Virus record (IMG/VR): IMGVR_UViG_3300031857_022279
Reading direction: 5' to 3' (one strand)
DNA from: a virus
Length of the DNA: 64,000 nt
A model generated the notes under the pieces. That model had not been told where the DNA came from. It saw only the letters and a program-made list of their open reading frames with translations, and made no database searches. Both the position numbers and the translations under genes were made by a program. Shown here one piece after another: positions 1,310 to 50,542 of the stretch (positions are counted from its first letter, which is position 1; each line of letters begins with the position of its first letter).

Positions 1310-2775
1310 TTACTTCATTCCGGAAAATATATCTAAAACCACACTAAGTCTTTTTGTAATCTCAGGAAGACCAAGTGGATCTATAATAGAATTAATTGGA
1401 GATAAAATTGACTTCATAAACTGCTCGTCATAATCAATTTCTGGTGCAAATTCTATAGGATAGGAACCCCTAATAAAAGCAAACATATCATTTGTCTTTT
1501 TATTCTTACAATAATAGTATTTGATCTTAGTTCCTGACTTAATGAATTCGTACTTTGATTGTAATAACTTATTCTGATTTAAAAGATAGTTATGATAAGC
1601 TGCAGATTTAACAGCAAAGTGGGCACCACTAACAAATTCCAATCTATCTTTATCTTCTAAAACTTTGGTTTCATAATTAGAACAAGATGACTGCATCGAA
1701 ATATCATCGATATCTGCAAGTTCAAATTCTTTTCTAAGATTTTTAACTAATTTTAGTAGGTCTTTGATATTAAAGTCATCTGGATGGGCAAAAAGATATT
1801 TTACAATTTCAACAATCTTTTCACGGGCAAATGCCGGTGTAGAAGAACGAACAAGCTCAACACCTTTAGGAAAGATATAAGTTAGTCTATCATAAGGAAT
1901 ACCATCTTCATATACAATATGCTGAATGTACTTCTTTTTTGCTATATTAATAATTGATTCTGATATCCTTTCTAACTCAAAATCTTCTCTGTTTTTTACT
2001 CCATAACTACCAGCATATTCATCAAGACATTTTTTGAAATAATCTCCATACCTAAGTGCGTCTATACCATGTATGAAATCTAATTCATTATCCCAATTCC
2101 ACTGTATTTCTATATCCTTAATTAAATCCTGAATATCTTTTGAATTAAATGACCGGTCTTTAACAAAATACCCATCGATAATAATTAATTCCGGATTAGT
2201 ATTAGTTATAAAATCTTTAAAATCATTTACGTTCTTAAAGTGACCAATACAATTACTATTAGTAATTTTAGATTCTTGTCTTTTTTCTAGAAATACAAAC
2301 CTCTGATTTAAAGAATTCATCTTTGACAGTGGAAGATTCCTCCATTCACAATGTTGAATTGCTGGTTCAAAAGATACAAATAATGAATCCGTATCTGCAT
2401 AGATTGATACTTCATCACCGTCTTTTTTGGATAAAGAAGTGACATTCTTCACTCCAAGTTTAGAATGTAGTTCAAAATCTAGATGCCATTGTTCATACCA
2501 ATACTTTTCATTTACAGCATTCATAGTTTTAGTCAAGTCTCTGCCTTGCGCTGTTATAGTACCGGCGACGTGTTGATTAAACAGTATGAAATATTGCGTA
2601 GCAAATGCTCCGTAACTTCCATTTAATATTAATTTTAAAGCATTTTCCCCTCTGTCAAAAAACAGAGGGGTTATCGAGCCAACTGAAGAGCGTTGTAATA
2701 ATCAGATTCTCTCTTCAGTTGGTTGGCTTTAATTTTTAGTGACTCGATTTTTTTTAATTTATCTTCTCTCGTCAT
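1310..2775 (-). CDS. gp43: Family B DNA polymerase, C-terminal half (fingers/palm/thumb), interrupted by a 38-nt coding gap at 2676-2639
   Basis: Motif C YADTDSLF, IAKKKY and KGVELVRSSTP are in ORF 1310..2536. That frame extends upstream without ATG/GTG/TTG through ALKLILNGSYGAF (motif B). The upstream ORF 2775..2671 ends YNALQLA-R-stop. Joining at the GCT/GCT pair restores QLALKLILNGSYG. Confidence 0.9.
2639..2679 (-). other. Candidate programmed translational bypass element (take-off GCT 2679-2677, CGA TAA, hairpin 2670-2647, landing GCT 2641-2639)
   Basis: Minus strand reads GCT CGA TAA CCCCTCTGT TTTTTG ACAGAGGGG AAAAT GCT TTA AAA. Confidence 0.7.
2671..2775 (-). CDS. 34-codon upstream ORF encoding the N-terminal segment of the polymerase subunit
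   Basis: Hand translation MTREDKLKKIESLKIKANQLKRESDYYNALQLAR*; below the ORF-track length cutoff. Confidence 0.85.
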   Translation of the reverse strand: MTREDKLKKIESLKIKANQLKRESDYYNALQLAR

Positions 2776-2860
2776 TTAATTTTTTATATTTTTTTTAAAT
2801 AATTTCCAAAGAAACTTATTGAAAAGTTATAGTGTTAAAAACAAGTTAGTTTAATAACTT

Positions 2861-3634
2861 TTAATCCTCCACACTAAAATCCTGTTCAAATGAAATCATA
2901 AGGTGACTCTCTTCGTCTTTCGTTAAAATAAAAGTTTCAAAAACGAAAAAGTGTACATGGTCACCACTATCATTGATAGAAGGTAGAAAAGTTTTGTTAA
3001 ACATTAGATGTCTATCAGTAACATCTACTTTGTCTACTTCAAATTCCCACGTTGATGTTTCAGAAAGAATAACCTTTTGACTATCTACGTTAAGATGAAC
3101 TACTTTACCGTCTGAGTTTATAGAGCAAAGTTTTTTAATATCTTGGAATTCACTACTTTCAACTTTAAAAGACCATTTAGACAATTTTGTATCGACTCTT
3201 TTAGATAAAACCGCTTTTGTTATATCTCTTATTTCTGAATTTTCACCACCTTGTATTGCAATTTTTAACTTACCATTTTTAATTTGTAAAAATCTTGCTA
3301 GAGATTGATCATCATCAGTTCTGTAATCAACAGTGACTGCAATTTTTTCAGATTTCTTTATAAATTGTAGATTCTTAACAAATTTCTTAGACCCTGAAAT
3401 TATTATATCAATAGTTTCATCAATATCCTCTTTAGTAGTTAAGTATTCGTTGGTATTAATGATGTAGCTTTTAAAGGCCAGTAGAATAGTTTCACCAACA
3501 ATAGAATACATTAAAATATTTTCTGAATCTATTTTTAACTTTAAGGTGTCACTTATTTTTGACAAATCTTCGAGCTTGTGAAGAAAATCTTCAAATTTAT
3601 CTCCGTTGATCGTGAAGTTAAGTTTCTTTGTCAT
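2861..3634 (-). CDS. Probable sliding clamp (gp45/PCNA-like)
   Basis: 257 aa with an alternating alpha/beta two-domain pattern; directly upstream of the polymerase gene on the same strand; no diagnostic motif confirmed. Confidence 0.5.
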   Translation of the reverse strand: MTKKLNFTINGDKFEDFLHKLEDLSKISDTLKLKIDSENILMYSIVGETILLAFKSYIINTNEYLTTKEDIDETIDIIISGSKKFVKNLQFIKKSEKIAVTVDYRTDDDQSLARFLQIKNGKLKIAIQGGENSEIRDITKAVLSKRVDTKLSKWSFKVESSEFQDIKKLCSINSDGKVVHLNVDSQKVILSETSTWEFEVDKVDVTDRHLMFNKTFLPSINDSGDHVHFFVFETFILTKDEESHLMISFEQDFSVED

Positions 3635-3686
3635 TTTAATTCTGATTTATAATATCTAATATATACAATAAATTTTGTTTTGTTTT

Positions 3687-4469
3687 ATGACCGATAATGA
3701 AATGACCGGCAAAAGAATTAAAGTTCAAAGTATGAATGATCCTTACGTTAACTTAAAAGAGGACGATTTAGGAACAGTTGTTGGAACTGATGAACTTGGA
3801 AATTTAATTGTAGATTGGGACAAAGGTATTACTTTAAAAATAACACCAGAGATTGATGAGTTTGAAATAGTTGAAGAGTCAAGAAAACTACATAAATTTT
3901 TTGAGTTCAAAGTAGAAGATAATATTAATGTTGATTTCATTTCTGCTAAAATGTACGAGTTAAGTGATTTAGTCTCTGAATATTCCGGAATCTCATTTGA
4001 GTATCACATACATTCTGAAAAAGAAAATTCAAATGAAATGGGTATTTTAGAAGTTTCATTGAGTTCAACTGAAACAGATATTAAAATATCTTGGATTTTA
4101 GACTTAGATAAACCTAATTTAAAAGTTGAAGAGTCTACTTCAGATACAACTGAAGAAGTTTATAGTTCACACCTTGAAAATATTGAAGAGGGATTAGACA
4201 TTATAGAGCATCATGTTCATAATATTTTTGAGATATCAGAGAGAAAAAAGGCACAAAGATATAAAGGTAGAAAAATTCCTGGAAAGTATCTCGCTGGTCC
4301 TCATCCAAGTAAGATGAAGAAGGAAATAGATAGATTCGTGGGAAAAAAAGAATACAAAAAAGATTGGGATGCCGACTACAAGTCTGGAAAAGGTGGTGAG
4401 GGAGAAAGAGTTAAGACTAAAAAATCTGCGGCTACAAAAGCTTACCAAAAAATGTTTGGTGATAAATAA
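3687..4469 (+). CDS. Hypothetical protein with an acidic core and a basic C-terminal phage head-type motif (KTKKSAATKAYQKMFG)
   Basis: ORF track 3675..4469; ATG 3687 preferred over TTG 3675. Confidence 0.65.
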   Translation: MTDNEMTGKRIKVQSMNDPYVNLKEDDLGTVVGTDELGNLIVDWDKGITLKITPEIDEFEIVEESRKLHKFFEFKVEDNINVDFISAKMYELSDLVSEYSGISFEYHIHSEKENSNEMGILEVSLSSTETDIKISWILDLDKPNLKVEESTSDTTEEVYSSHLENIEEGLDIIEHHVHNIFEISERKKAQRYKGRKIPGKYLAGPHPSKMKKEIDRFVGKKEYKKDWDADYKSGKGGEGERVKTKKSAATKAYQKMFGDK

Positions 4470-4480
4470 AATATAATAAT

Positions 4481-5041
4481 ATGGAAATTAAGAAATTTGG
4501 AAAACCTGAGAAACCTGTCATCGAAGACAAGGTTGAGAAAAATGGTTCAGTCGTAGTACCAAAAAAACTAAACGAACAAACAGTATCTCAATTGACTGAC
4601 AGACTAAAAGATGAGTACACTGCTCACTTCTATTACAGATCTGCGGCTAACTGGTGTCGTAATATGAATTACAAAAAAGCTGCTGCGTTTTTTGAAAACG
4701 AAGCGAATACTGAGTTAGAACATGCAACTGGATTACAAGAATATATGGATGACTTCAATGTTCAGCCTGAAATACCACAAACTGAGACTGATTTTAAATT
4801 CTCTACATTAGTTGATATTATCAACGGTGCATATGATATGGAATTGAATCTATTGAACGCATATAACAAAAGCTCTTCAGAATTATTCACTAGTGATTTA
4901 ACAACATTTGATTTTTTACAAAGTTATAGAACAGGTCAAAAAGAAGCTGTTATTGAGTATTCTGACTTACTAAATGCATTGGTGTTAGTAGATCACAATG
5001 ATAAATTCCAAGTTCTTTACTTTGAACAAACTTACTTTTAA
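4481..5041 (+). CDS. ftn: Ferritin (non-haem, FtnA-like)
   Basis: Aligns by eye to E. coli FtnA: DEYTAHFYY, AAAFF..EANTELEH, AYDME, TFDFLQSYRTGQKE. Confidence 0.85.
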   Translation: MEIKKFGKPEKPVIEDKVEKNGSVVVPKKLNEQTVSQLTDRLKDEYTAHFYYRSAANWCRNMNYKKAAAFFENEANTELEHATGLQEYMDDFNVQPEIPQTETDFKFSTLVDIINGAYDMELNLLNAYNKSSSELFTSDLTTFDFLQSYRTGQKEAVIEYSDLLNALVLVDHNDKFQVLYFEQTYF

Positions 5042-5044
5042 ACT

Positions 5045-5437
5045 ATGAAATACCTACTAAACTACGAAGATTTAATTGAAGATTTCTCTAAATATCTTGA
5101 AGAAGAAGATATGAACCTTAAAAATGATTTCAATGAGATAGTTGAAGAACTTGACGAGTACGATGAATTATATGACATATCTGAGAGTAACTCAGGTGTG
5201 ACTGCTTCTCTTAGAAAGAAGTCAAAAGCCTCTGGTATTCCTATGGGAATTTTGAGAAAAGTATTTGCTCGTGGAATGCAGGCATGGAATGCGGGACACA
5301 GACCAGGTGTTGCTCAACATCAATGGGCTTTTGGAAGAGTCAATAGTTTTATAACCGGAGCGGGTGGTGCTAGAAAATCAGATTCCGATTTGTGGTCAAA
5401 GGCTAAAGCCGCTAAAGCTAGAAAAAAGAAAAAATAA
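5045..5437 (+). CDS. Conserved viral protein (DUF5824-like)
   Basis: SGIPMGILRKVFARGMQAWNAGHRPGVAQHQWAFGRVNSF motif, recognised from T4-like phage and algal virus proteins. Confidence 0.6.
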   Translation: MKYLLNYEDLIEDFSKYLEEEDMNLKNDFNEIVEELDEYDELYDISESNSGVTASLRKKSKASGIPMGILRKVFARGMQAWNAGHRPGVAQHQWAFGRVNSFITGAGGARKSDSDLWSKAKAAKARKKKK

Positions 5438-5439
5438 AT

Positions 5440-5706
5440 ATGAAATACTTAAAAAGATTTAATGAAAATTTAGATAATAATTCTGATAAAATCCATATAC
5501 CTGAAGAGTATTCAGGAGTTAGAATGGAAATTGGAGAATTTGCTTCACCTAATGATATTATTGTTGCTTATAATACTACAGTTGAAGAAGGAACACCTCT
5601 TGTTAGTTATTCTGATGGTACATTCTATAATGAGGACGATATGGATATTCCAGTTGATGTTGTTCTTGACGAATTGAACTATGCAATTACAGGTGGTGAA
5701 GAATAA
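5440..5706 (+). CDS. Small acidic protein with CTS-like N-terminus
   Basis: MKYLKRFNENL... Confidence 0.65.
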   Translation: MKYLKRFNENLDNNSDKIHIPEEYSGVRMEIGEFASPNDIIVAYNTTVEEGTPLVSYSDGTFYNEDDMDIPVDVVLDELNYAITGGEE

Positions 5707-5725
5707 TTAAAATTTAAAAATATGT

Positions 5726-5749
5726 AAAAAGACCCCTACGGGTCTTTTT
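5726..5749. terminator. Bidirectional intrinsic terminator
   Basis: AAAAAGACCC-CTAC-GGGTCTTTTT between convergent genes. Confidence 0.85.
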
Positions 5750-6478
5750 TTATCCTAAAAGTTCATCTAATCTTTCGCCTCTAGAAGGTGTGATTTGAGA
5801 AGAAGATGCCAATTCTTGATTTCCGAATTCTATTACTTGTTGATTGAATGATATTATTTTAGATAATCTATAAAGTAATAATTCATCTTCAATTTTATAC
5901 CTCTTTTCTAAGCTTTCAAATTGATCAGTATTCCTTCGTAGGTAAAGAATAGAGTCTATGATATAGTCACTTTTATCCCAATCAAGAGAAACTATCTGAC
6001 CAGTCGAATACTTCATATTACAGATTTCGTTTCCTTCTTCATCAAACGCCCAGTAATTTGAAATTATTTCAATTACATCTTTTAGAGTTTGAACAAAGTG
6101 GATACATGGAAGCACCGGAACATAATTAAAGTTGTATTTATAATTAATGTAATCTATTTTTTTTATTTGATGAATATTTTTTTCTTGTAGTTGTTTAAGA
6201 GTTGAAATCTCTTTGCGAAGATTCATTTCTGACCTTTTACTACAATTTTGATTGCTGTGTTTTACAGTAAATCCCTCTTCTAGGAAATTATTAAGTAAAA
6301 TTTCAAATCTGGATTCGTGATTTTTAGCAATAGAAAAAGAGAATCTATAGTTGATTTTCAAGGAACTAGGATTATCAATATTGTATAATTGACCTGAAAC
6401 TAAAGAATTAGAATAGGAAGAGTCTTTTATTTTTTCTTCCCAAAAAAGAATCTCACTTTTAGATAGAAACCTGCTCAT
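5750..6478 (-). CDS. Hypothetical protein
   Basis: ORF track; overlaps the end of the aminotransferase gene. Confidence 0.65.
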   Translation of the reverse strand: MSRFLSKSEILFWEEKIKDSSYSNSLVSGQLYNIDNPSSLKINYRFSFSIAKNHESRFEILLNNFLEEGFTVKHSNQNCSKRSEMNLRKEISTLKQLQEKNIHQIKKIDYINYKYNFNYVPVLPCIHFVQTLKDVIEIISNYWAFDEEGNEICNMKYSTGQIVSLDWDKSDYIIDSILYLRRNTDQFESLEKRYKIEDELLLYRLSKIISFNQQVIEFGNQELASSSQITPSRGERLDELLG

Positions 6479-7571
6479 CGACTTTTATTTTATCAAAGTA
6501 ATTAACAAAAGTTTCGTGTGGTACCGCAACCGAAATTCTTGATAACTCTGGATTTACAGTTCTATTCAAAGAGAATTTGGTAAGAGGCACCGATGATATC
6601 TGATTGACGAGTAAGATGTCAAAGTCAATTTTTATAATTGCAAAGGGACCAGTTGGTGTTGATGGATATTCATCAAATAAAAATCCTCTCTCTTTTAAGT
6701 AACTAATATTCTTTTTAATACTGTCTTGAGTTTTTAATTTATAATTATCTAATGCCAATTTACCATCATCTGTTGTAAGTAGTCTAGTTATTATTTGCTG
6801 AGGTATTGTTGAAATGGAATTATACTTATATAAAGAACGAATCTTCATTGAGTTATACAATTCTTGATTTTTTGTTGCGATATATCCGACTCTGAGTCCT
6901 GATAAACCCATTGATTTAGAAAAAGATGAAATCACAATTACATTATCGTAAAATAATTCATGAATAGGATCATCAATATCATTGAAAAGAAAGTAATATG
7001 GTAGGTCTAAAATAACTGTAATATTTTTTTCTTTTGAATAGTCTAAGAATTTTTTTAAGTCATAGAAATATGGTGACCATCCAGTTGGATTTGACGGAAA
7101 ACATAACATAACTACTCCTGATGGTCCAAGTATCGGATCCAAAGCTTTGAAGTTGCCAATATTAAAATCATCAAACTCTTGAATATTTTTATTATGAATT
7201 TTAAGAATTTTATTCCAAGATCCCCAGTGATATTTCGGAACCCAGAAGTTTTCTTCTGAAAGTGAATTAATAACTAAATCAAGTGTTGCCATTCCACCGG
7301 GAACAGTCATTACCCAGTGATCTTTCAAGTGAAATTTATCTTTAATTGCTTCTACTAATTTAGTATCACCATCATTACCACCATATTGCTGAACAGATTT
7401 TTGATTATAGTCAAAGTCATTCATGAACGAATTTAAATCGATTAAATCTACATCCATTACTCCTCTGTGTAGTTTCAAGTAAGGTTTTCTAGTTTTCTTT
7501 TCTAGATTTTGACATCTTTCACCTATTTCAACAATTGACGAGTAAGTAACTGGGGAATGATTAATTTTCAT
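6459..7571 (-). CDS. PLP-dependent aminotransferase, class I/II
   Basis: PSNPTG, ILDLPYY and SFSKSMGLSGLRVGY (PLP lysine) motifs. Confidence 0.9.
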   Translation of the reverse strand: MKINHSPVTYSSIVEIGERCQNLEKKTRKPYLKLHRGVMDVDLIDLNSFMNDFDYNQKSVQQYGGNDGDTKLVEAIKDKFHLKDHWVMTVPGGMATLDLVINSLSEENFWVPKYHWGSWNKILKIHNKNIQEFDDFNIGNFKALDPILGPSGVVMLCFPSNPTGWSPYFYDLKKFLDYSKEKNITVILDLPYYFLFNDIDDPIHELFYDNVIVISSFSKSMGLSGLRVGYIATKNQELYNSMKIRSLYKYNSISTIPQQIITRLLTTDDGKLALDNYKLKTQDSIKKNISYLKERGFLFDEYPSTPTGPFAIIKIDFDILLVNQISSVPLTKFSLNRTVNPELSRISVAVPHETFVNYFDKIKVDEQVSI

Positions 7572-7885
7572 AATACTTCATTTAAAATTTTTCTGAATTC
7601 GTTTTCAATTTCACGAATTTTTCTTCTAGTAGACTTTATATCAAATTGCATTCGATAGAAGTTTACCTTATCTTCATCATCTTCATTGAGCAGAGATACT
7701 TTAAATTCAACATTTTTTTCTAACGACGTGATTTTATCTTTTAGAATCTCTTTAGTTAATTTAATGGGTCCTAATTCAGAATTTACTATAAATTCTCCTG
7801 ATTCATCGAACTCTACTTCACTATCTCTAGTAAGTACAGTTTTATCTAAAATAGTTAGATCTTGTGTAAGTTTATATTTAGCCAT
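7568..7885 (-). CDS. Hypothetical protein
   Basis: ORF track; 4-nt overlap with the downstream gene. Confidence 0.65.
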   Translation of the reverse strand: MAKYKLTQDLTILDKTVLTRDSEVEFDESGEFIVNSELGPIKLTKEILKDKITSLEKNVEFKVSLLNEDDEDKVNFYRMQFDIKSTRRKIREIENEFRKILNEVL

Positions 7886-7931
7886 AGGATTTAATATATA
7901 GAATGTAGTTGAAAATAACTTTAAAGTTTAA

Positions 7932-9221
7932 ATGATAAAAAAGTATAACGATTTTATTCTTGAATCTAAAATTCCAAGTCTTATACTTGAAGGTGAATTT
8001 TCTGGTTCAATTAATTTCATTGAAAGATTAAGAAAAATATCCAAGACTAGTAAAGTAGCTGGTGAACTTCATAGACTTTTTGGATTTGAATTAGAGGTGG
8101 ATAAAGATCTATCACAAAACTATATTGATGTGACTGATAAGGATGACACTGTTACTTTCATTTCCGACCAGAGAGTTTCGAGACTTCCACTAGATAGTTC
8201 ACCATATATGTCATCTAGTAGAAGTGAAATAAAAGTCGGAAGATTTGCAAGAGCTATTCTCACTGACCCTGAAATAAAAAAACAAATAGGGTTCACTGCG
8301 ACATTTACAGATAAGGATTTTGAAGATTTTGTAAACTTATATAAGGCTGGTAATACTCAAGTTAAAAACGAGTTTAAGCTAGTCAATAGTTCTAAAATTT
8401 CAAGATATTATTACGAAGATACTTACGCTTATCAAAAAGGCGATCTCGGTAACTCTTGTATGAAATATGAGAGTTGCCAAGACTATTTCGGAATATATGA
8501 AGAAAATAGTGATGTTTGTAGTCTTTTAGTTTATCTTGATTCTGCTGGTTATGTACTTGGAAGAGCACTTGTTTGGAGTGTTTCAAAATCCCCTTGTAGT
8601 GCTAAAAAATTTATGGACAGAATTTATACAGCAAGTGATAGTGATAGATATAAGTTTATAGAGTGGGCAAATGAAAATGATTGTATGTACAAGTACAAAA
8701 ATAGTTCTGACGAGACAGAAGGACTTTTTTTTAAATATAAAGGTGAAATTTTTCTTGGTGAGGTAGTTGTAAATTTGAAAAAAGTTAATTTTGATGAATA
8801 TCCATACGTAGATACTTTAAGATATCTAAACAAAAAAGACAAGACTCTTAGTAATGTCGGTTCAAAAAAAGTTAAAATTCTCAATGATACTGGAGGAGGA
8901 TGGGATCATTGTTGGCATTGTGATGAATCTGGAGTTGATGAAGGAGAATGTCAGGTATGTGATGGTGGTGGAACAGTCAATTGTAAAAAATGCGGAGGTA
9001 CTGGAACTCATGAGGATAAAAAGTGTAAAAAATGTGATGGTGAGGGATGGAGAGATTGTAAAGAATGTGACGGTAGTGGTAGTGTAAAGATACCTTGTCC
9101 TGAATGCGCTGGATCGTACAGATCATCTCTTGAATCTGGTAGTTTTCCTTCAGAGTTAAAAGATTTAGTTAAATCAGAACTAGAGAGAATGAAACTCGAA
9201 AACTCTTATCGACCTAAATAG
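7932..9221 (+). CDS. Protein with CTS-like N-terminus and C-terminal DnaJ-type CxxCxGxG zinc-finger repeats
   Basis: MIKKYNDFILES; CWHCDESG, CQVCDGGG, CKKCGGTG, CKKCDGEG, CKECDGSG, CPECAG. Confidence 0.75.
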   Translation: MIKKYNDFILESKIPSLILEGEFSGSINFIERLRKISKTSKVAGELHRLFGFELEVDKDLSQNYIDVTDKDDTVTFISDQRVSRLPLDSSPYMSSSRSEIKVGRFARAILTDPEIKKQIGFTATFTDKDFEDFVNLYKAGNTQVKNEFKLVNSSKISRYYYEDTYAYQKGDLGNSCMKYESCQDYFGIYEENSDVCSLLVYLDSAGYVLGRALVWSVSKSPCSAKKFMDRIYTASDSDRYKFIEWANENDCMYKYKNSSDETEGLFFKYKGEIFLGEVVVNLKKVNFDEYPYVDTLRYLNKKDKTLSNVGSKKVKILNDTGGGWDHCWHCDESGVDEGECQVCDGGGTVNCKKCGGTGTHEDKKCKKCDGEGWRDCKECDGSGSVKIPCPECAGSYRSSLESGSFPSELKDLVKSELERMKLENSYRPK

Positions 9222-9697
9222 TTGAAAAGTTCGATTATATTCTTAATTGTAAACTGTAGACTTTCTAGATTCTTATTTGTTTGTCTTAAAAACTCAATAT
9301 AATTTTCAATTAATTCAACATTCCTTTGTTCTTCAGAGACGTGAGCTTCTATTAGAAGAGTTTTCTCTCCCATATTTGTTTTGATTCCAAAAGAAGTAGC
9401 ATACCACACAAACTTATCTTGTTTGATTCTTTTAAGTTTTACATCTTGCTTGCTTCTTTTATCCAGGAATACAGATATTTGTTCATTTAAAGATTGTCTG
9501 TAAGTAAGACAAAGTGACTGTGTATCAAGAATTTGTTGCGAAGTTTTTGCAGTTATTTCAAACTTTAACACTTCGAATAGTGGTGTAATTAACTTGGACC
9601 ACTCTTCTCTTTTAGTATTAAAAAAGTCTTCAAGGCGATCATTAGTATCTTTGAGTCTAGAAATTTTATCTAATTCTTCTTGAGAATAAATGTTCAA
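9206..9697 (-). CDS. Probable UvsY-like recombination mediator
   Basis: All-helical 163 aa; C-terminal YIEFLRQTNKNLESLQFTIKNIIE resembles the UvsY C-terminus. Confidence 0.45.
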   Translation of the reverse strand: MNIYSQEELDKISRLKDTNDRLEDFFNTKREEWSKLITPLFEVLKFEITAKTSQQILDTQSLCLTYRQSLNEQISVFLDKRSKQDVKLKRIKQDKFVWYATSFGIKTNMGEKTLLIEAHVSEEQRNVELIENYIEFLRQTNKNLESLQFTIKNIIELFNYLGR

Positions 9698-9774
9698 CTG
9701 TTAAAAAATTATTTTTTATTTATAGTAGGAAAAAGACAAGGAGTTAGATATATAAGTTAAAATTTAATAATTTT

Positions 9775-10194
9775 ATGGTTACATCGAGTCAATGTCAGAA
9801 AAAATATGGAACACCTTCTAAAGATAATAGTTGTATGACACTTTGGGATGTTCCTTCAGCTTTAGAGATTGGAGTTATCCCAAAAAAAATCTATATGAAT
9901 AAAGATATGGTTGATCCCCTTAAAAAGGCTTTCGGTAATCTTATTAGTCGTGGATTTGTTGAAGAATTGAAAACTTGGGATGGTTGTTTTAACATAAGAA
10001 AGAAAAGAGGTGGTACGACCATGAGCCTACATTCCTGGGCCATTGCAGTAGATGTTAACGCTTTTGAGAATGGTTTTGGAAAAGAACCAAAATTGAGTTC
10101 GGGATTTGTAAAATGTTTTACCGATGCCGGTTTTGATTGGGGAGGTACTTGGAAAAAGAAAGATGGTATGCACTTTCAATTATCAAAAATCTAA
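9775..10194 (+). CDS. M15 family Zn peptidase (L-Ala-D-Glu peptidase type endolysin)
   Basis: R...SLHSWAIAVDVN and DGMHFQ motifs. Confidence 0.85.
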   Translation: MVTSSQCQKKYGTPSKDNSCMTLWDVPSALEIGVIPKKIYMNKDMVDPLKKAFGNLISRGFVEELKTWDGCFNIRKKRGGTTMSLHSWAIAVDVNAFENGFGKEPKLSSGFVKCFTDAGFDWGGTWKKKDGMHFQLSKI

Positions 10195-10195
10195 A

Positions 10196-11347
10196 TTACT
10201 TGAGAACATTGACAACTTCAGTGAAGTATTTACACACATCTTCATTTTTTCCATCATAGTCGAATACACTCAAAACGTATCTCATAGCATTCAATCTGCC
10301 TATCTTCTTATCATTTGAGTTTATTATTACCCAAGGAACTCTTGAAGTAGATGTCTTGTTAAACATCTGATTTTTATATTTAGTGATGATGTCCCACTTA
10401 TCAATTACCTTAGCGTCATTTGGAGAAAATTTCCAATATTTTAAAGGCGAAGTTTGTCTAAGTTGAAATCTTAGTTCTTGTTTTTCTCTTGTGATTGAAA
10501 ACCATAACTTTATTACTGTTACTCCACTTTTATAAAGCTTATCTTCCCAAGAATTAACACCTTCCATAAAATCCATATATTGCTCTTCTGTGCAATAACC
10601 CATAGCTGGTTCAACAACCGCTCTATTGTACCAAGATCTATCGAAAAAAACTATCTCACCAGGTTTTGGCAAATATTTTTCATATCTTCCAAACCAGTTT
10701 TGTCTTTCTTCGTCTGTTGGTACACCAAGAGCCACAACTCTGTAGTATTTTGGATTTAAATATTCAGTGAATCTTTTAATTGTAGAACCTTTTCCTGCTG
10801 AATCTCTGCCTTCAAACACTATAGCAACTCTCTCTCCACTTTTAACAATCCACTCTTGTAGTTTTAACAATTCAACTTGAATATCATACTTTTCTTCTTC
10901 ATATTTTCTTTTTGTTAATATTGAAGATTCTCCTTCTATTTTATCAAATTTATCTTCTTCACTCTCAACTGGCTGACCTTCTTCGAATCTATTATCTAGA
11001 CTGTAGTAGTAATCTCTAAACTCTTCTTTTACTTTCCTTTTAGTGTTTCTCTTTTTAAGATCTAAAATTTGTGATATTTTTCTTAAAAATGAATCTATGT
11101 TAAATTGATCAACAACATCTTTTCCTAATTCGGAATTTAATTGTGACAATATTTGAGAAATGTTTATATTATCAAATTTTTTATACTCAATTTTATTTGT
11201 CTTTATATTATATTCTATATTATCAAGAATAGAAGATCTATACTCATCAAGATTTTTCTTAACTTTATCAATTAGATTTGAAAACTCTTCTTTAGATAAT
11301 TTACCTATATTAAGTTCTTCGTTTATAAAATTTATGAATTTCAACAT
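10196..11347 (-). CDS. ppk2: Polyphosphate kinase 2 with an N-terminal extension of about 140 aa
   Basis: FEGRDSAGKGST (Walker A), FDRSWYNR (Walker B), LKYWKFSPND lid region. Confidence 0.93.
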   Translation of the reverse strand: MLKFINFINEELNIGKLSKEEFSNLIDKVKKNLDEYRSSILDNIEYNIKTNKIEYKKFDNINISQILSQLNSELGKDVVDQFNIDSFLRKISQILDLKKRNTKRKVKEEFRDYYYSLDNRFEEGQPVESEEDKFDKIEGESSILTKRKYEEEKYDIQVELLKLQEWIVKSGERVAIVFEGRDSAGKGSTIKRFTEYLNPKYYRVVALGVPTDEERQNWFGRYEKYLPKPGEIVFFDRSWYNRAVVEPAMGYCTEEQYMDFMEGVNSWEDKLYKSGVTVIKLWFSITREKQELRFQLRQTSPLKYWKFSPNDAKVIDKWDIITKYKNQMFNKTSTSRVPWVIINSNDKKIGRLNAMRYVLSVFDYDGKNEDVCKYFTEVVNVLK

Positions 11348-11376
11348 ATGCTATTTTATTTTAGACAATTTATATA

Positions 11377-12282
11377 TTAAATCTTCTTATCAAAAATATA
11401 CAAGTCATAAATAGCATTTCCTTTTACGGTTTTAATGCTTTTTAAAACTTGACCTGTTGTAGAGTCAAGGACTTTAAATACTCCTAAGTTAACTCCTTTA
11501 TCATCTAACACTTTGACAGTATTTCCAGGTTCACCTAACGCTCCTAAAATAGCCAAATATTTATTCCCATAAATACTTTTTAAGAAAGATATTCTTACAT
11601 TTTCAACATTCTTCAAATTGTTTACATAAGCATTATCAAGAGGGCTATTTAAATCCAATTTTGATGATGTGTCTTTTACTCTTATTGTAACAAACTTTCT
11701 CTCATCTTGACTAAGTGTAACTTCTTCTCTATTTTGAATGACGTTTTGTTTAACTAAATTTTGTTGGTTTCTTCTAATCGCATTAAAATCTGCTTTAACA
11801 ATTATCCCGCCTCTCATTCCTTTATCATTCATATTATACCCATTAGGTGGAAGTCTATAGAATGAACCAGTAAACGTCATAGATAAGATTCTATCACTTC
11901 TAAAAAGTCTCCAAATTTTATTTATATGTCTGTTTTTAGATACAGACCACCCATTAAGGTGCCACCCTCTTAAAAGTGGTTTACCTTTAGAAGAACGTCC
12001 GAGTACCATTGGATAAATAACACGTTCATGTCCTGCAAAATGCTTATCTTTCTCACCTTTGTAGTTTATCAAAAATATCATTCCATATTGAATGGCTTTA
12101 ATCATTAACTTTTCATCGTACTTTATTGGTTCATTAATTGGTACGTTTTGAAAGTCTTTAATATTTTTGAGTGAGAAACGAGGAATAAATTCCCTATCTT
12201 CTTTTAAATCATTATAGGATTCTTTTACAATAAATTCTACATTTTTAGTATTAAAGTAAGATTTTGATTGTGAAATATTCAT
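11377..12282 (-). CDS. Protein with a WYL-like domain
   Basis: INYKGE...ERVIYPMVLG...LLRGWHL...WRLFRSDRI pattern. Confidence 0.55.
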   Translation of the reverse strand: MNISQSKSYFNTKNVEFIVKESYNDLKEDREFIPRFSLKNIKDFQNVPINEPIKYDEKLMIKAIQYGMIFLINYKGEKDKHFAGHERVIYPMVLGRSSKGKPLLRGWHLNGWSVSKNRHINKIWRLFRSDRILSMTFTGSFYRLPPNGYNMNDKGMRGGIIVKADFNAIRRNQQNLVKQNVIQNREEVTLSQDERKFVTIRVKDTSSKLDLNSPLDNAYVNNLKNVENVRISFLKSIYGNKYLAILGALGEPGNTVKVLDDKGVNLGVFKVLDSTTGQVLKSIKTVKGNAIYDLYIFDKKI

Positions 12283-12345: not shown

Positions 12346-14265
12346 TTATTCTTTTACAAACTTAATTGTTTTAAATGATTCTCTATCAAAAACAGAAAGG
12401 ATGTAGTATCCTTTTTCACAATTTTGTAAGTTCATTTCTACAAAATTTTTCCCAACTTTCGCTTGGAAATTAGTTTTCTGAACAATCCTGCCAGTAGCAT
12501 CAGTAATAGTAATGTCATAATATGATTCATTTTTTGATTCGAAGTTTACATTAAGAAGTTCTTTTGCTGGGTTTGGGAACACAGAAATTGATTCTAATTT
12601 TTCTCTATCGATTGATACTATTTCAGAAGTACTTTCCGACTCTCTGAATGTTGCTGAACTTGTCGATGCTAATAAATTATAGCAAAGTGTGGAGTTAAAA
12701 GCTCCTGCATACCCAAAAACGTATACCTTGTAAGTTCCTACTGGGCCATTATTATAAATGATTAGTTCTGAAGTTGTGCCACTGTTTAAGGAAGATCCGA
12801 CTTGAACATTTGAAGGGTTGTAAAGTCTTACATCATAATCAGCTGGTAAATTACTAAGATTTATTTTTACATTTCTATTTGTTGTCGTTGTGGTGAATTT
12901 GAAATAGTCTTTATCAGTGCTGGTTGAAATTCTTGCAGTAATTGTTGTATTTACTGGTATAGTTTTAGCAGTGTTTAGACTATTATTCGACTCATAAGTA
13001 TCTGTACAACTAGTTGACTGAGAAAGAGTTGTAAAACTCGATTGAGTTGAGTAATTACTTGTTGTAGTTCCACAAACTGACTGAACTTGGAAATTATAAG
13101 TTGTGTTAGTGGTGAGACCTGTCAGTGAAACTGAAGTTGAAGTCGTGTTCACAGTAGTCCAAGTACTAGATGTGGAAAGCTTCCACTGTAGATTATAAGA
13201 ACTTACTCCCGCAATAGATGACCAAGATATAGTCGCAGTATTAGTTGTTACGATTGATGAAGAAACTCCCGAAGGAACTGAACAGGTTGTTGTATTCGGA
13301 GCAGAACATCCAAGAGATGTCAAAAGAGAAGATCTTGCGCCTCCAGATGTAAAAAGAGCTTGACTTCTTACCGCCTGACCATTTGAGAACATATACATAC
13401 ATGCGTCATCTGTATAATCCATAAAATTCATTGTCATTTCAACAGGAGATCCAGTACAAGTTGAAAGATGTGGATATGTTGGACACCCATAATTTGCAGT
13501 ATTATGAGTTGGTGTATCAGACACTAAGTCACTTCCACAGTTAGCATCTCCCCATATGTGTCTGAGATTTAACCAGTGACCCACTTCGTGTGTTGCTGTT
13601 CTTCCAAGTCCAAATGCTCCTCCAGAAGGATTTGAAACACTACCAACACAAGATGAAGTAAGTACAACTCCATCAGTTGCAACAGTTCCACCTGGAAATT
13701 GAGCGTATCCTAAAACACCACCACTAAGATTACAAACCCAAATGTTTAAATAACTTGAACTAGGCCAAGCATCAAGACCTCCTTGAGCAAAATACTTAAC
13801 AGTATTATTAGTTGAAAAGGATGTTGCTGTTGTTTGTCTTCTTTGAATTCCTGTTGTTGGATTTCCATTCGGATCTCTTGTCGCGAGACAAAATTGTATA
13901 TCCATGTTTCCTGTTGGTTGAAAGACAGAAGGAGTACTAGAATTATCACTGTTTAATTTAGAAAAATCTAAATTTAATTGACTTAACTGTGAGTTTATTT
14001 TAGAGTCACTTATATTTTGTGAAGTAGTATTGTAAACTATGTGAAAAACTACTGGTATTGTTACAATTGCTCTTGATGAGCCATCATAGTTTCTAATAAA
14101 ATCATTTGTAAATTGTTCAATCTGTTCTTGATTGATTTGATAGTTTGGATCAATCAATAATTGACTCTGATGATATTCATCTTGACCACAAATCCGTTGT
14201 GAATATGATTCACTAAATAAAAATAGTGAAACACCTAATAATAGAAAATTAATAAACTTTTTCAT
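12346..14265 (-). CDS. Secreted M43 (ulilysin/pappalysin-like) zinc metalloprotease with FN3, PPC-like and T9SS C-terminal sorting domains
   Basis: Signal peptide MKKFINFLLLGVSLFLFSESYSQ (ATG 14265 preferred over 14313); HEVGHWLNLRHIWGD; Met-turn MNFMDY; FN3 YNFQVQSVC; C-terminal VFPNPAK...GYYIL...TIKFVKE. Confidence 0.9.
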   Translation of the reverse strand: MKKFINFLLLGVSLFLFSESYSQRICGQDEYHQSQLLIDPNYQINQEQIEQFTNDFIRNYDGSSRAIVTIPVVFHIVYNTTSQNISDSKINSQLSQLNLDFSKLNSDNSSTPSVFQPTGNMDIQFCLATRDPNGNPTTGIQRRQTTATSFSTNNTVKYFAQGGLDAWPSSSYLNIWVCNLSGGVLGYAQFPGGTVATDGVVLTSSCVGSVSNPSGGAFGLGRTATHEVGHWLNLRHIWGDANCGSDLVSDTPTHNTANYGCPTYPHLSTCTGSPVEMTMNFMDYTDDACMYMFSNGQAVRSQALFTSGGARSSLLTSLGCSAPNTTTCSVPSGVSSSIVTTNTATISWSSIAGVSSYNLQWKLSTSSTWTTVNTTSTSVSLTGLTTNTTYNFQVQSVCGTTTSNYSTQSSFTTLSQSTSCTDTYESNNSLNTAKTIPVNTTITARISTSTDKDYFKFTTTTTNRNVKINLSNLPADYDVRLYNPSNVQVGSSLNSGTTSELIIYNNGPVGTYKVYVFGYAGAFNSTLCYNLLASTSSATFRESESTSEIVSIDREKLESISVFPNPAKELLNVNFESKNESYYDITITDATGRIVQKTNFQAKVGKNFVEMNLQNCEKGYYILSVFDRESFKTIKFVKE

Positions 14266-14311
14266 CGAATTTTTTATTTTTATATATCTTTTTTTGACTC
14301 TTTTAAAAAAC

Positions 14312-14342
14312 AAAAAAGACCCAAATAAATTTGGGTCTTTTT
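14312..14342. terminator. Intrinsic terminator downstream of the lipoprotein gene
   Basis: AAAAAAGACCCAAA-TAAA-TTTGGGTCTTTTT. Confidence 0.8.
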
Positions 14343-48847: not shown

Positions 48848-50542
48848 ATGTTTATGAATTTAGATATTTTTAGAAACCCGGATCCATCGGGAAAACTGTA
48901 CAAAGAATCTTTTTTATATAAAAATTTTCCAGAAGAATATAATTTTATTGTTTCATATTGTGATATCAATAAAATAGTAGATATTAGTTTTAAGGAAAAA
49001 GTTTATCTCGTTTTAAATGAATTGAAGTCAATACCAGCTTGTAAAAATTCAAATTGTAATAATAGAGTTAAATTTAAAAATTCAACGATTGGGTACTTGA
49101 AATATTGCTCGAAGAAGTGTGTTTCGGACGACCCAAATATAAAGAAGATCAAAGAAGAGAAATCAATATCTAAATGGGGTACAAAATCTCCTGCTCAGTC
49201 ACAAGAGATAAAAGATAAAATCATAAAAACTAATCAAGAGAAATATGGTCATAATTCACCTATGAATTTAAAATCAATTCAAGATAAATCAATGCAAACT
49301 TTAATCAAAAATTGGGGAGTTGAAAATCCAAGTAATTCTAGTGAGTTATTGCAAAAAAGAATTGAATCTTTTAAATCAAGTTCATTTAAAGATACTTTTA
49401 AATTAACATCATTAAAGAGATATGGAGTTGAACATCCATGGAGAAATAAAGAGATTCACTCAAAAACGATTTCTCATTTCTATGATGATTATGTTGTTAG
49501 AATAAATAGTAAAATAAACACTAATGAGTTTGTTTTTTTAGGTTTTGAAAAATCGATATCTACACATCTACTATTTAAATGTTGTAAGTGTGATCGGAAT
49601 TTTAAAATATTAACATACCAATTCTATTATAGAATTAATTCTGGTCTTAGTATTTGTACTAACTGCTTTCCTATTTCTGAAAATTCTTCAATATCACAGA
49701 TCGAGGTTTATAATTTTATCAAAGAAAATTACGCCGGTGAGATACTAGTTGATGATAGATCTTCGATAAAACCTTACGAGATAGATATATTTCTTCCATC
49801 ACTAAACATTGGATTCGAATTCAATGGATTATGGTGGCACTCATCTAAATATAAAAATGAGAACTATCACTTGGTTAAAAGAGAGGTTGCAAGTTCTAAT
49901 AATATAAAACTTTTAACTATATGGGAAGATGATTGGACTATCAAACGAGAGATTTGCAAATCATTTATTCTTAATAAGCTTAATAAATCAACAAAAATTC
50001 CAGCAAGAAAATGTGAGATTATAGAAATAGATTATAGTTCCTCAAAGGCCTTTTTAAACGAAAATCACTTTCAAGGTGATTGTAAATCTTCTATTAGAAT
50101 TGGTTTATTTTATCAAGGAATTTTGGTATCTCTAATGACATTTTCAAAATTAAGACTACCATTAGGAGGTAGACACAGAGAAGGAGTCTATGAATTAACT
50201 AGATTTTGTAATAAAATTTTTACTACTGTTGTTGGTGGTTCTTCTAGGTTGTTAAGTTACTTTTTAAAAAAGTATGATCCATTGTCTATTGAAACCTATT
50301 CTGATAATATGATTTCAGACGGTAATATGTATGATAAATTAGGATTTTCATATCAACACACATCATCACCGAGTTATTGGTATGTAATTGATCAAAAAAG
50401 AGAAAATCGTTTTAATTGGAGAAAATCAAGATTGAAAAAAATTGGTGGTGATATGGATAAGACCGAGCAACAAATTATGGAGGAATGGGGATTTTATAGA
50501 GTTTATAATGCTGGTAATAAAAAATGGATATTGACAAAATAA
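48848..50542 (+). mobile_element. Free-standing Hef-like homing endonuclease gene
   Basis: Zn motif CKNSNC...YCSKKC, KYG/KWG-x-x-P repeats, CCKC...CTNC, EIDIFLP...GFEFNGLWWHS nuclease motif, C-terminal ELTRFC/YSD domain. Confidence 0.7.

Follow-up and report, generated by a model that had tools for sequence, protein, structure and literature searches.

A candidate programmed ribosomal bypass in motif B of a split megaphage DNA polymerase

The gene for the C-terminal subunit of the essential PolB DNA polymerase of a giant freshwater phage, virus record IMGVR_UViG_3300031857_022279, is interrupted inside motif B, its most strongly conserved part, by a gap of 38 nt (2676-2639), and comparison with related loci makes it probable, at roughly 0.8, that ribosomes cross this gap by programmed bypassing. 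Homing of a nuclease would have produced the arrangement, on the model of T4 gene 60/mobA but using other signals. The window, that is, the whole stretch of DNA that was analysed, comprises 64,000 nt. Re-reading of the sequence confirmed all coordinates of a preliminary description, which had reported the leader, the following CGA TAA, the hairpin, the AAAAT spacer, the second GCT, and the 38-nt gap. Its central proposal, that a hop from GCT to GCT restores motif B, has good support from comparison, with matched codon pairs at six sites. The 5' stem-loop, the link to a nuclease, and the division of PolB into two genes were absent from that description. The features of the locus are listed below.

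2776..2860, no strand: intergenic stretch; site of a divergently transcribed homing endonuclease gene in relatives, empty here
2677..2775, minus strand: first coding segment (33 codons), which encodes the N-terminal fingers helix of the C-terminal PolB subunit as far as the motif B Ala
2679..2722, minus strand: 5' stem-loop of 12 bp inside the coding sequence, its 3' end at the first base of the take-off codon
2677..2679, minus strand: putative take-off codon GCT (Ala33), assigned from sequence and comparison
2671..2676, minus strand: A-site codon CGA (2676-2674) and stop codon TAA (2673-2671)
2647..2670, minus strand: gap hairpin of 10 pairs, with a C-run in the 5' arm and a G-run in the 3' arm
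2642..2646, minus strand: A-rich spacer AAAAT between hairpin and landing codon
2639..2641, minus strand: putative landing codon GCT
1310..2638, minus strand: resumed frame of 442 codons with the motif B Lys, Asn, and Tyr-Gly, motif C, KKKY, and thumb

The leader starts at ATG 2775 and ends at GCT 2679-2677. The resumed frame opens with TTA AAA, ends with a stop codon at 1312-1310, and matches Pfam PF00136 (E 2.6e-16) and positions 515-839 of the PHROG 262 profile. As had been described, no ATG, GTG, or TTG precedes motif B in the downstream frame; the earliest is TTG 2536, which lies past the motif. The joined product would have 475 aa, and most uninterrupted homologues have 470-481 aa. In uninterrupted relatives the leader continues directly into motif B, and an alignment through these homologues places it on the fingers helix of Sulfolobus PolB (1s5j). 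The leader, 70% identical in alignment to the start of an uninterrupted relative (L061), is the true N-terminus of the subunit. The downstream frame compared with the same relative gives dN 0.073 and dS 1.66, and dN/dS values of ~0.03-0.08 indicate purifying selection. The C-terminal half of PolB occurs in one copy in each of two 98%-complete insert-bearing genomes, in a search for a second polB that covered the genomes of relatives. The AlphaFold model of one uninterrupted homologue was poor (pLDDT 43) and was not used as evidence.

Sequence comparison identifies the gene as the C-terminal subunit of a two-gene PolB. It begins in a fingers helix, and a distant gene encodes the other subunit, of ~510 aa, with the exonuclease and motif A. 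The two genes lie ~100 kb apart in related genomes, and the break falls between two fingers helices (window 1310-2775; L152:394-1932). Past motif C, at window ~2200-1950 (subunit residues 130-215), there are ~85-90 extra residues, which vary among relatives and are absent in some (L050, L053-L056). Eight relatives (L039, L041, L042, L043, L047, L048, L049, L057) carry further insertions near motif C, beside the motif B gap; the motif C insertions in relatives are intein-like extensions, some of them split by a 370-aa ORF (cluster c29). The gene upstream of the polymerase in the window (2861-3634, 257 aa) is conserved in that place in most relatives and has no Pfam or PHROG match; at a guess, it might encode a sliding clamp.

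The closest complete genomes are LR745206 and LR756502, of 634 and 642 kb, at 69% identity. Both have been placed in the Mahaphage clade, with Bacteroidetes as predicted hosts (PMC7162821). At window 12346-14313 an M43 peptidase is encoded that carries fibronectin III and a T9SS C-terminal sorting domain. None of the 54 window ORFs has a Shine-Dalgarno (SD) sequence; ORF starts throughout the window (1-64000) are rich in A, which stands at -3 in 28 of 54. The protein with a T9SS C-terminal domain and the SD-less genes agree with the predicted Bacteroidota host.

An identical insert was found in 9 of 10 other assemblies with the same neighbouring gene (ENA, JGI, NCBI, Logan). Consequently, an assembly or indel error, which the preliminary description had named among its possible refutations, is ruled out at assembly level. 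The exact insert had no match in IMG/VR. In one assembly (L170:960-1000) a 41-nt deletion in an A-rich stretch removes the leader ATG, which is probably an assembly slip. Among 134 informative related loci, motif B is contiguous in 60 and interrupted in 74, and the latter reduce to 51 distinct inserts of 36-48 nt. Their lengths cover all three frames (18/16/17). The inserts occupy six different motif B residues spread over ten codons, namely Ala (6, including that of the window), Leu (18), Val (4), Gly (2), Ser (1), and Tyr (20). All follow a shared plan: a take-off codon, 5-6 nt, a stem with a C-run and a G-run, 4-10 A-rich nt, and a landing triplet. The distance from take-off codon to stem is 5-6 nt in 43 of 51 inserts, and the spacer between stem and landing triplet has a mode of 6 nt. 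The longest inserts (L018, L037, L082, L140) have a stem extended back to the take-off codon and keep 7-8 nt from stem to landing triplet. At one locus (L067:3100-3204) the polymerase gene contains a 41-nt gap at Leu and, nine codons away, a 37-nt gap at Tyr with its landing on TAA, so that two successive hops would be needed to make the protein. The element occurs once per genome. No copies were found elsewhere in the window or in five related genomes, where the weak matches were intergenic terminator-like hairpins.

The gap hairpin of the window comprises 9 Watson-Crick pairs, one U-G pair, and a 4-nt loop (z -4.7 against shuffles). Across the 51 inserts, 89.6% of cells are paired, with two-sided changes at 7 of 10 pairs. 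This pairing exceeds all controls: 0 of 500 shuffles reach the observed value, and slid controls also fall below it. There are 37 distinct 5' arms and the pair types are diverse, though relatedness inflates the shuffle and slid controls; the related loci are not independent and P values overstate. A transcription terminator was rejected because no U-tract follows the stem on either strand, and an Rfam search with the insert returned only a chance miRNA match. The second structure, the 5' stem-loop at 2722-2679 (-17.9 kcal/mol, z -4.8), has counterparts in all 24 inserts of the Ala and Leu classes, at -14.8 to -28.4 kcal/mol. The same region in 47 uninterrupted alleles reaches -1.5 to -12.7 kcal/mol, without overlap. 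In the Ala and Leu classes this stem-loop is made of synonymous and near-neutral changes, shows two-sided pair changes, and ends within 0-4 nt of the last base of the take-off codon; in the Tyr class it is weak or absent. A 3' stem-loop of the kind associated with forward slippage was not found in the window copy (z 0.38) and is at most weak in relatives. At the level of sequence, the comparison shows that the insert is real, that it is mobile and has structure, and that a duplicated codon frames it.

An argument for bypassing comes from the codons at the two ends of the gap. The pairs by class are GCT to GCT or GCA, CTT or CTC to CTA, GTT to GTA or GTT, GGT to GGT, TCT to TCA, and TAT to TAC. 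Outside the Tyr class, take-off and landing codons match at position 1 in 30 of 31 inserts, at position 2 in 31 of 31, and at position 3 in only 7 of 31, while the flanking bases match in only 4 and 3 of 31. A match restricted to positions 1 and 2 reads as a signature of tRNA re-pairing, following wobble logic rather than microhomology. Both copies of the Leu codon are CTN in 18 of 18 inserts, with CTA as the landing codon in all 18, and uninterrupted alleles have TTA or TTG at this Leu in 21 of 47. If only one copy were coding, TTA or TTG would be expected among the Leu inserts; the exclusive use of CTN argues against this. The trend from NNU to NNA and from UAU to UAC suggests the exchange of a wobble pair for a Watson-Crick pair. 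Premature two-base matches are absent from 225 spacer positions of the non-Tyr inserts, compared with 15 occurrences of the dinucleotides of other classes in 900 positions, which is suggestive only.

The Tyr class fits less closely. Its landing triplet matches TAY at three bases in 3 inserts, at two in 13 (often TAA), and at one in 4. No more than 6 of 20 have it as the best-matching triplet of the spacer. It still outscores neighbouring offsets (1.95 versus ~1.0). Landing in this class would therefore have to be set by more than the anticodon, for instance by position relative to the hairpin, unless hopping is inefficient or a different mechanism is at work. P-site re-pairing latitude has been reported for gene 60 and for byps (10.1101/2022.08.31.505936).

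In the proposed mechanism, the ribosome would translate 33 codons up to GCT, at which point the gap hairpin would sit at the mRNA entry channel, the base of the stem lying at ~+9/+10 when the first P-site base is +1. The hairpin would stall the ribosome and probably block the A site, while the 5' stem-loop would refold behind it. Peptidyl-tRNA-Ala would then unpair, the folded hairpin would be passed as a unit without scanning, and the tRNA would re-pair with the GCT that follows the stem after 5 nt. Decoding would restart at TTA, and the resulting subunit would have 475 aa and an unbroken motif B. A ribosome failing to take off would release a 34-aa peptide at the TAA one codon on. The hairpin may both trigger take-off and be crossed folded, with the stop disposing of failures. 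Crossing in the folded state is suggested because the arms of the Gly-class hairpins hold GGG triplets on which a scanning ribosome would land. Ribosomes have been found to stall on hairpins 11-12 nt from the P-site codon, and such hairpins to dock in the A site (10.1101/2020.02.05.936120); the stem here is 1-3 nt nearer than in those experiments.

Several signals suggested earlier are not well supported. This holds for CGA as an avoided-codon trigger, as relatives mostly have a common codon (TTT, GTT, GCT) after take-off and only 2 of 51 inserts have CGA there; CGA makes up 5% of Arg codons in the window. The Lys/Arg-rich leader, once considered a nascent-peptide signal, is a property of the family rather than of insert alleles, since the K+R content of uninterrupted homologues equals or exceeds that of interrupted ones (8.2 versus 7.2 per 30 aa). 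The hairpin does not correspond to a take-off stem of the gene 60 type, because it starts 6 nt past the take-off codon and excludes it. The proposed SD role of GAGGGG is doubtful: the sequence forms the 3' arm of the hairpin, whose pairs covary, and the window ORFs are SD-less. The G-run nevertheless ends 5-9 nt before the landing triplet in most inserts, while being a stem arm, and this spacing leaves room for an SD function on landing, which it may have. Bacteroidota ribosomes sequester the anti-SD, and those of Bacteroidia largely ignore SD sequences, even in prfB frameshifting (PMC7797042, PMC10798248). A regulatory switch is likewise unsupported, as 60 loci lack the insert and the insert tracks a homing endonuclease; regulation is unnecessary for explaining its distribution. 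Phage tRNAs in two insert-bearing genomes gave no link to bypassing. The stop lies at the second codon after take-off in 35 of 51 inserts and directly adjacent in 6, and in 10 there is no stop close by. A take-off from the codon that precedes the stop was rejected: it would add or replace a motif B residue, and that codon has no landing-side partner.

The distribution of the insert points to homing as its origin. A divergent upstream nuclease gene is present at 36 of 53 insert loci versus 2 of 45 contiguous loci. It encodes either a DUF7487 protein whose C-terminus is HNH-like (PHROG homing endonuclease; PHROG 3339-12131) or a GIY-YIG protein. On the polymerase tree, built by a quick method, the insert classes lie scattered (39 changes), and insert position follows the nuclease tree, built with FastTree (12 changes versus 18.9 when shuffled), in which Tyr/Gly/Ser form one clade and Ala/Leu/Val another. 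The nearest relative of the window on the polymerase tree is 97% identical distally and has no insert, and an Ala-class locus (L009) and a Tyr-class locus (L020) have identical distal proteins. At a further locus (L168:2278-2515) the upstream gene of the window (772/774 nt) stands beside a different leader and a Tyr-class insert, a case of cassette or allele exchange in one phage background, within one population. The free-standing upstream nuclease, DUF7487/HNH-like and sometimes GIY-YIG, would target the motif B DNA of insert-free phages. The insert would destroy this target and be co-converted with the nuclease, as for T4 mobA/gene 60, and in the window phage the nuclease would have been lost while the gap persists. 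The insert, taken as a marker, co-occurs and co-travels with the predicted nuclease, which is absent from the window copy; an origin by nuclease homing is inferred from this analysis. A 564-aa homing endonuclease (PHROG 3339, E 5e-114) of the same broad family as the polymerase-linked nucleases is encoded beside the tail sheath gene at 48848-50542.

Four other explanations compete with bypassing. A -1 frameshift near GCT is very unlikely. It would read through this gap, where the resumed frame is open, with the hairpin at the distance of a frameshift stimulator, and add 13 residues to the motif B helix; there is no slippery site, the extra residues would separate the motif B Gln and Lys, and gap lengths fall in all frames. 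For the family as a whole, neither a single frameshift nor re-initiation suffices, because an in-gap stop closes the resumed frame in 39 of 51 inserts, in 22 of them within the last four codons, and 36 of 51 have no usable start. Termination with re-initiation, giving a three-piece polymerase, or a dead pseudogene, is the least probable explanation of all. It draws on the calling of the 34-aa ORF as a separate gene, on ATA and CTG codons in the resumed frame, and on the fact that PolB is already split once. Six break points inside one catalytic helix, a stop directly before the landing triplet or as that triplet in many alleles, strong purifying selection, and the single copy speak against it.

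The remaining two would remove the gap from the nucleic acid itself. A mini-intron, in which a protein endonuclease and ligase, or else a trans-acting ribozyme, would excise the hairpin from the mRNA, is unlikely on balance. It would account for the conserved hairpin at a fixed 5-6 nt from the 5' junction and for the U that ends this junction in most alleles, and it suits the Tyr class by needing no matched landing codon. On the other hand, 36-48 nt is too small for a group I or II core, there is no Rfam match, gaps lack a terminal G, a 3' distance varying over 4-10 nt would make a ruler-like cut imprecise, and the duplicated triplet differs from one amino acid to the next and is not constant at its wobble base. 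A search of four related phage genomes for two enzymes, the tRNA-splicing endonuclease and RtcB, found neither. Hallmarks of group I, group II, and BHB introns, namely a ribozyme core, a terminal G, or this splicing endonuclease, were not found. A jump by RNA polymerase, or replication slippage producing minority genomes without the hairpin that supply the polymerase, has only a slight chance of being correct. A GC-rich hairpin between short direct repeats (GCT here) would favour such a skip, but the homology is just 2-3 nt and in codon register, and for 9 of 20 Tyr inserts any join within the shared bases would give a stop or a wrong residue. Assemblies show the insert form only, though contigs drop rare variants.

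Programmed bypassing in the polymerase can be compared with established natural cases, which comprise T4 gene 60 with its cassette, the yeast mitochondrial byps, and a Streptomyces phage candidate (10.1101/2022.08.31.505936, PMC5009743, PMC10732093). As in gene 60, a non-coding gap separates two frames whose joining is needed for an essential protein, take-off and landing codons can be read by the same tRNA (GCT/GCT here, only partly in the Tyr class), a 5' stem-loop lies upstream of take-off in the Ala and Leu classes, and the insert with its nuclease mirrors the nuclease-linked gene 60/mobA cassette (10.1101/2022.08.31.505936). The differences are considerable. No stop or rare codon regularly occupies the A site directly (here CGA, then TAA), the stop being mostly one codon away; the hairpin starts 5-6 nt after the take-off codon; six take-off residues spread over ten codons replace two adjacent ones (10.1101/2022.08.31.505936); one gene has two gaps; landing triplets may match at one or two bases; and the phages are SD-less, with a probable Bacteroidota host. 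The linked nuclease is a DUF7487 protein encoded upstream and divergently, without MobA homology. mobA cassettes sit in topoisomerase genes, whereas these inserts sit in PolB, and the paper describing the cassettes does not mention polymerase (10.1101/2022.08.31.505936). The byps of Magnusiomyces capitatus resemble the inserts in being 27-55 nt hairpin-type elements with several take-off codons and tolerated two-of-three landing (PMC5009743, 10.1101/2022.08.31.505936); they differ in their unused, avoided A-site codon and many sites per genome, whereas the PolB inserts occur at one site per genome, on a bacterial ribosome, tied to a nuclease. The Streptomyces phage Hau3 terminase is likewise a phage gene joined by bypassing with a 5' stem-loop, but with a much shorter gap, a rare UUA codon as trigger, and a proposed regulatory role (PMC10732093). 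In Prevotella loescheii plaA, a 29-nt hop was reported for a Bacteroidota ribosome (PMC5009743); that case, likened here by description and not by sequence, concerns a chromosomal adhesin gene and has been little followed up. No account of bypassing in a polymerase gene was found in a literature search outside subscription papers. The insert would therefore work like the gene 60 bypass while standing outside the mobA cassette family in host gene, nuclease, stem position, and trigger, and it is most likely a separate, more flexible counterpart.

A stronger proposal, held tentatively and at somewhat less than even odds, is that the insert represents a portable bypass signal. A lone hairpin at a fixed distance would cause take-off from almost any codon without an A-site stop, the folded hairpin would be jumped, and landing would depend mainly on position, so that one- or two-base matches, including stop triplets, would work and two hops could occur within nine codons of one essential gene, on a ribosome that is probably of Bacteroidota type.

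The practical consequence is that gene callers truncate PolB in about half of these megaphages and lose motif B. If bypassing is confirmed, the family would constitute a second independent bypass family, in which 51 natural variants offer ready-made mutagenesis. These variants can serve the questions of how take-off is triggered without a stop, whether the hairpin is crossed folded, and how landing succeeds with a poor codon match. The finding also suggests that bypassing may be a general route by which selfish nucleases mark essential motifs, beside introns and inteins.
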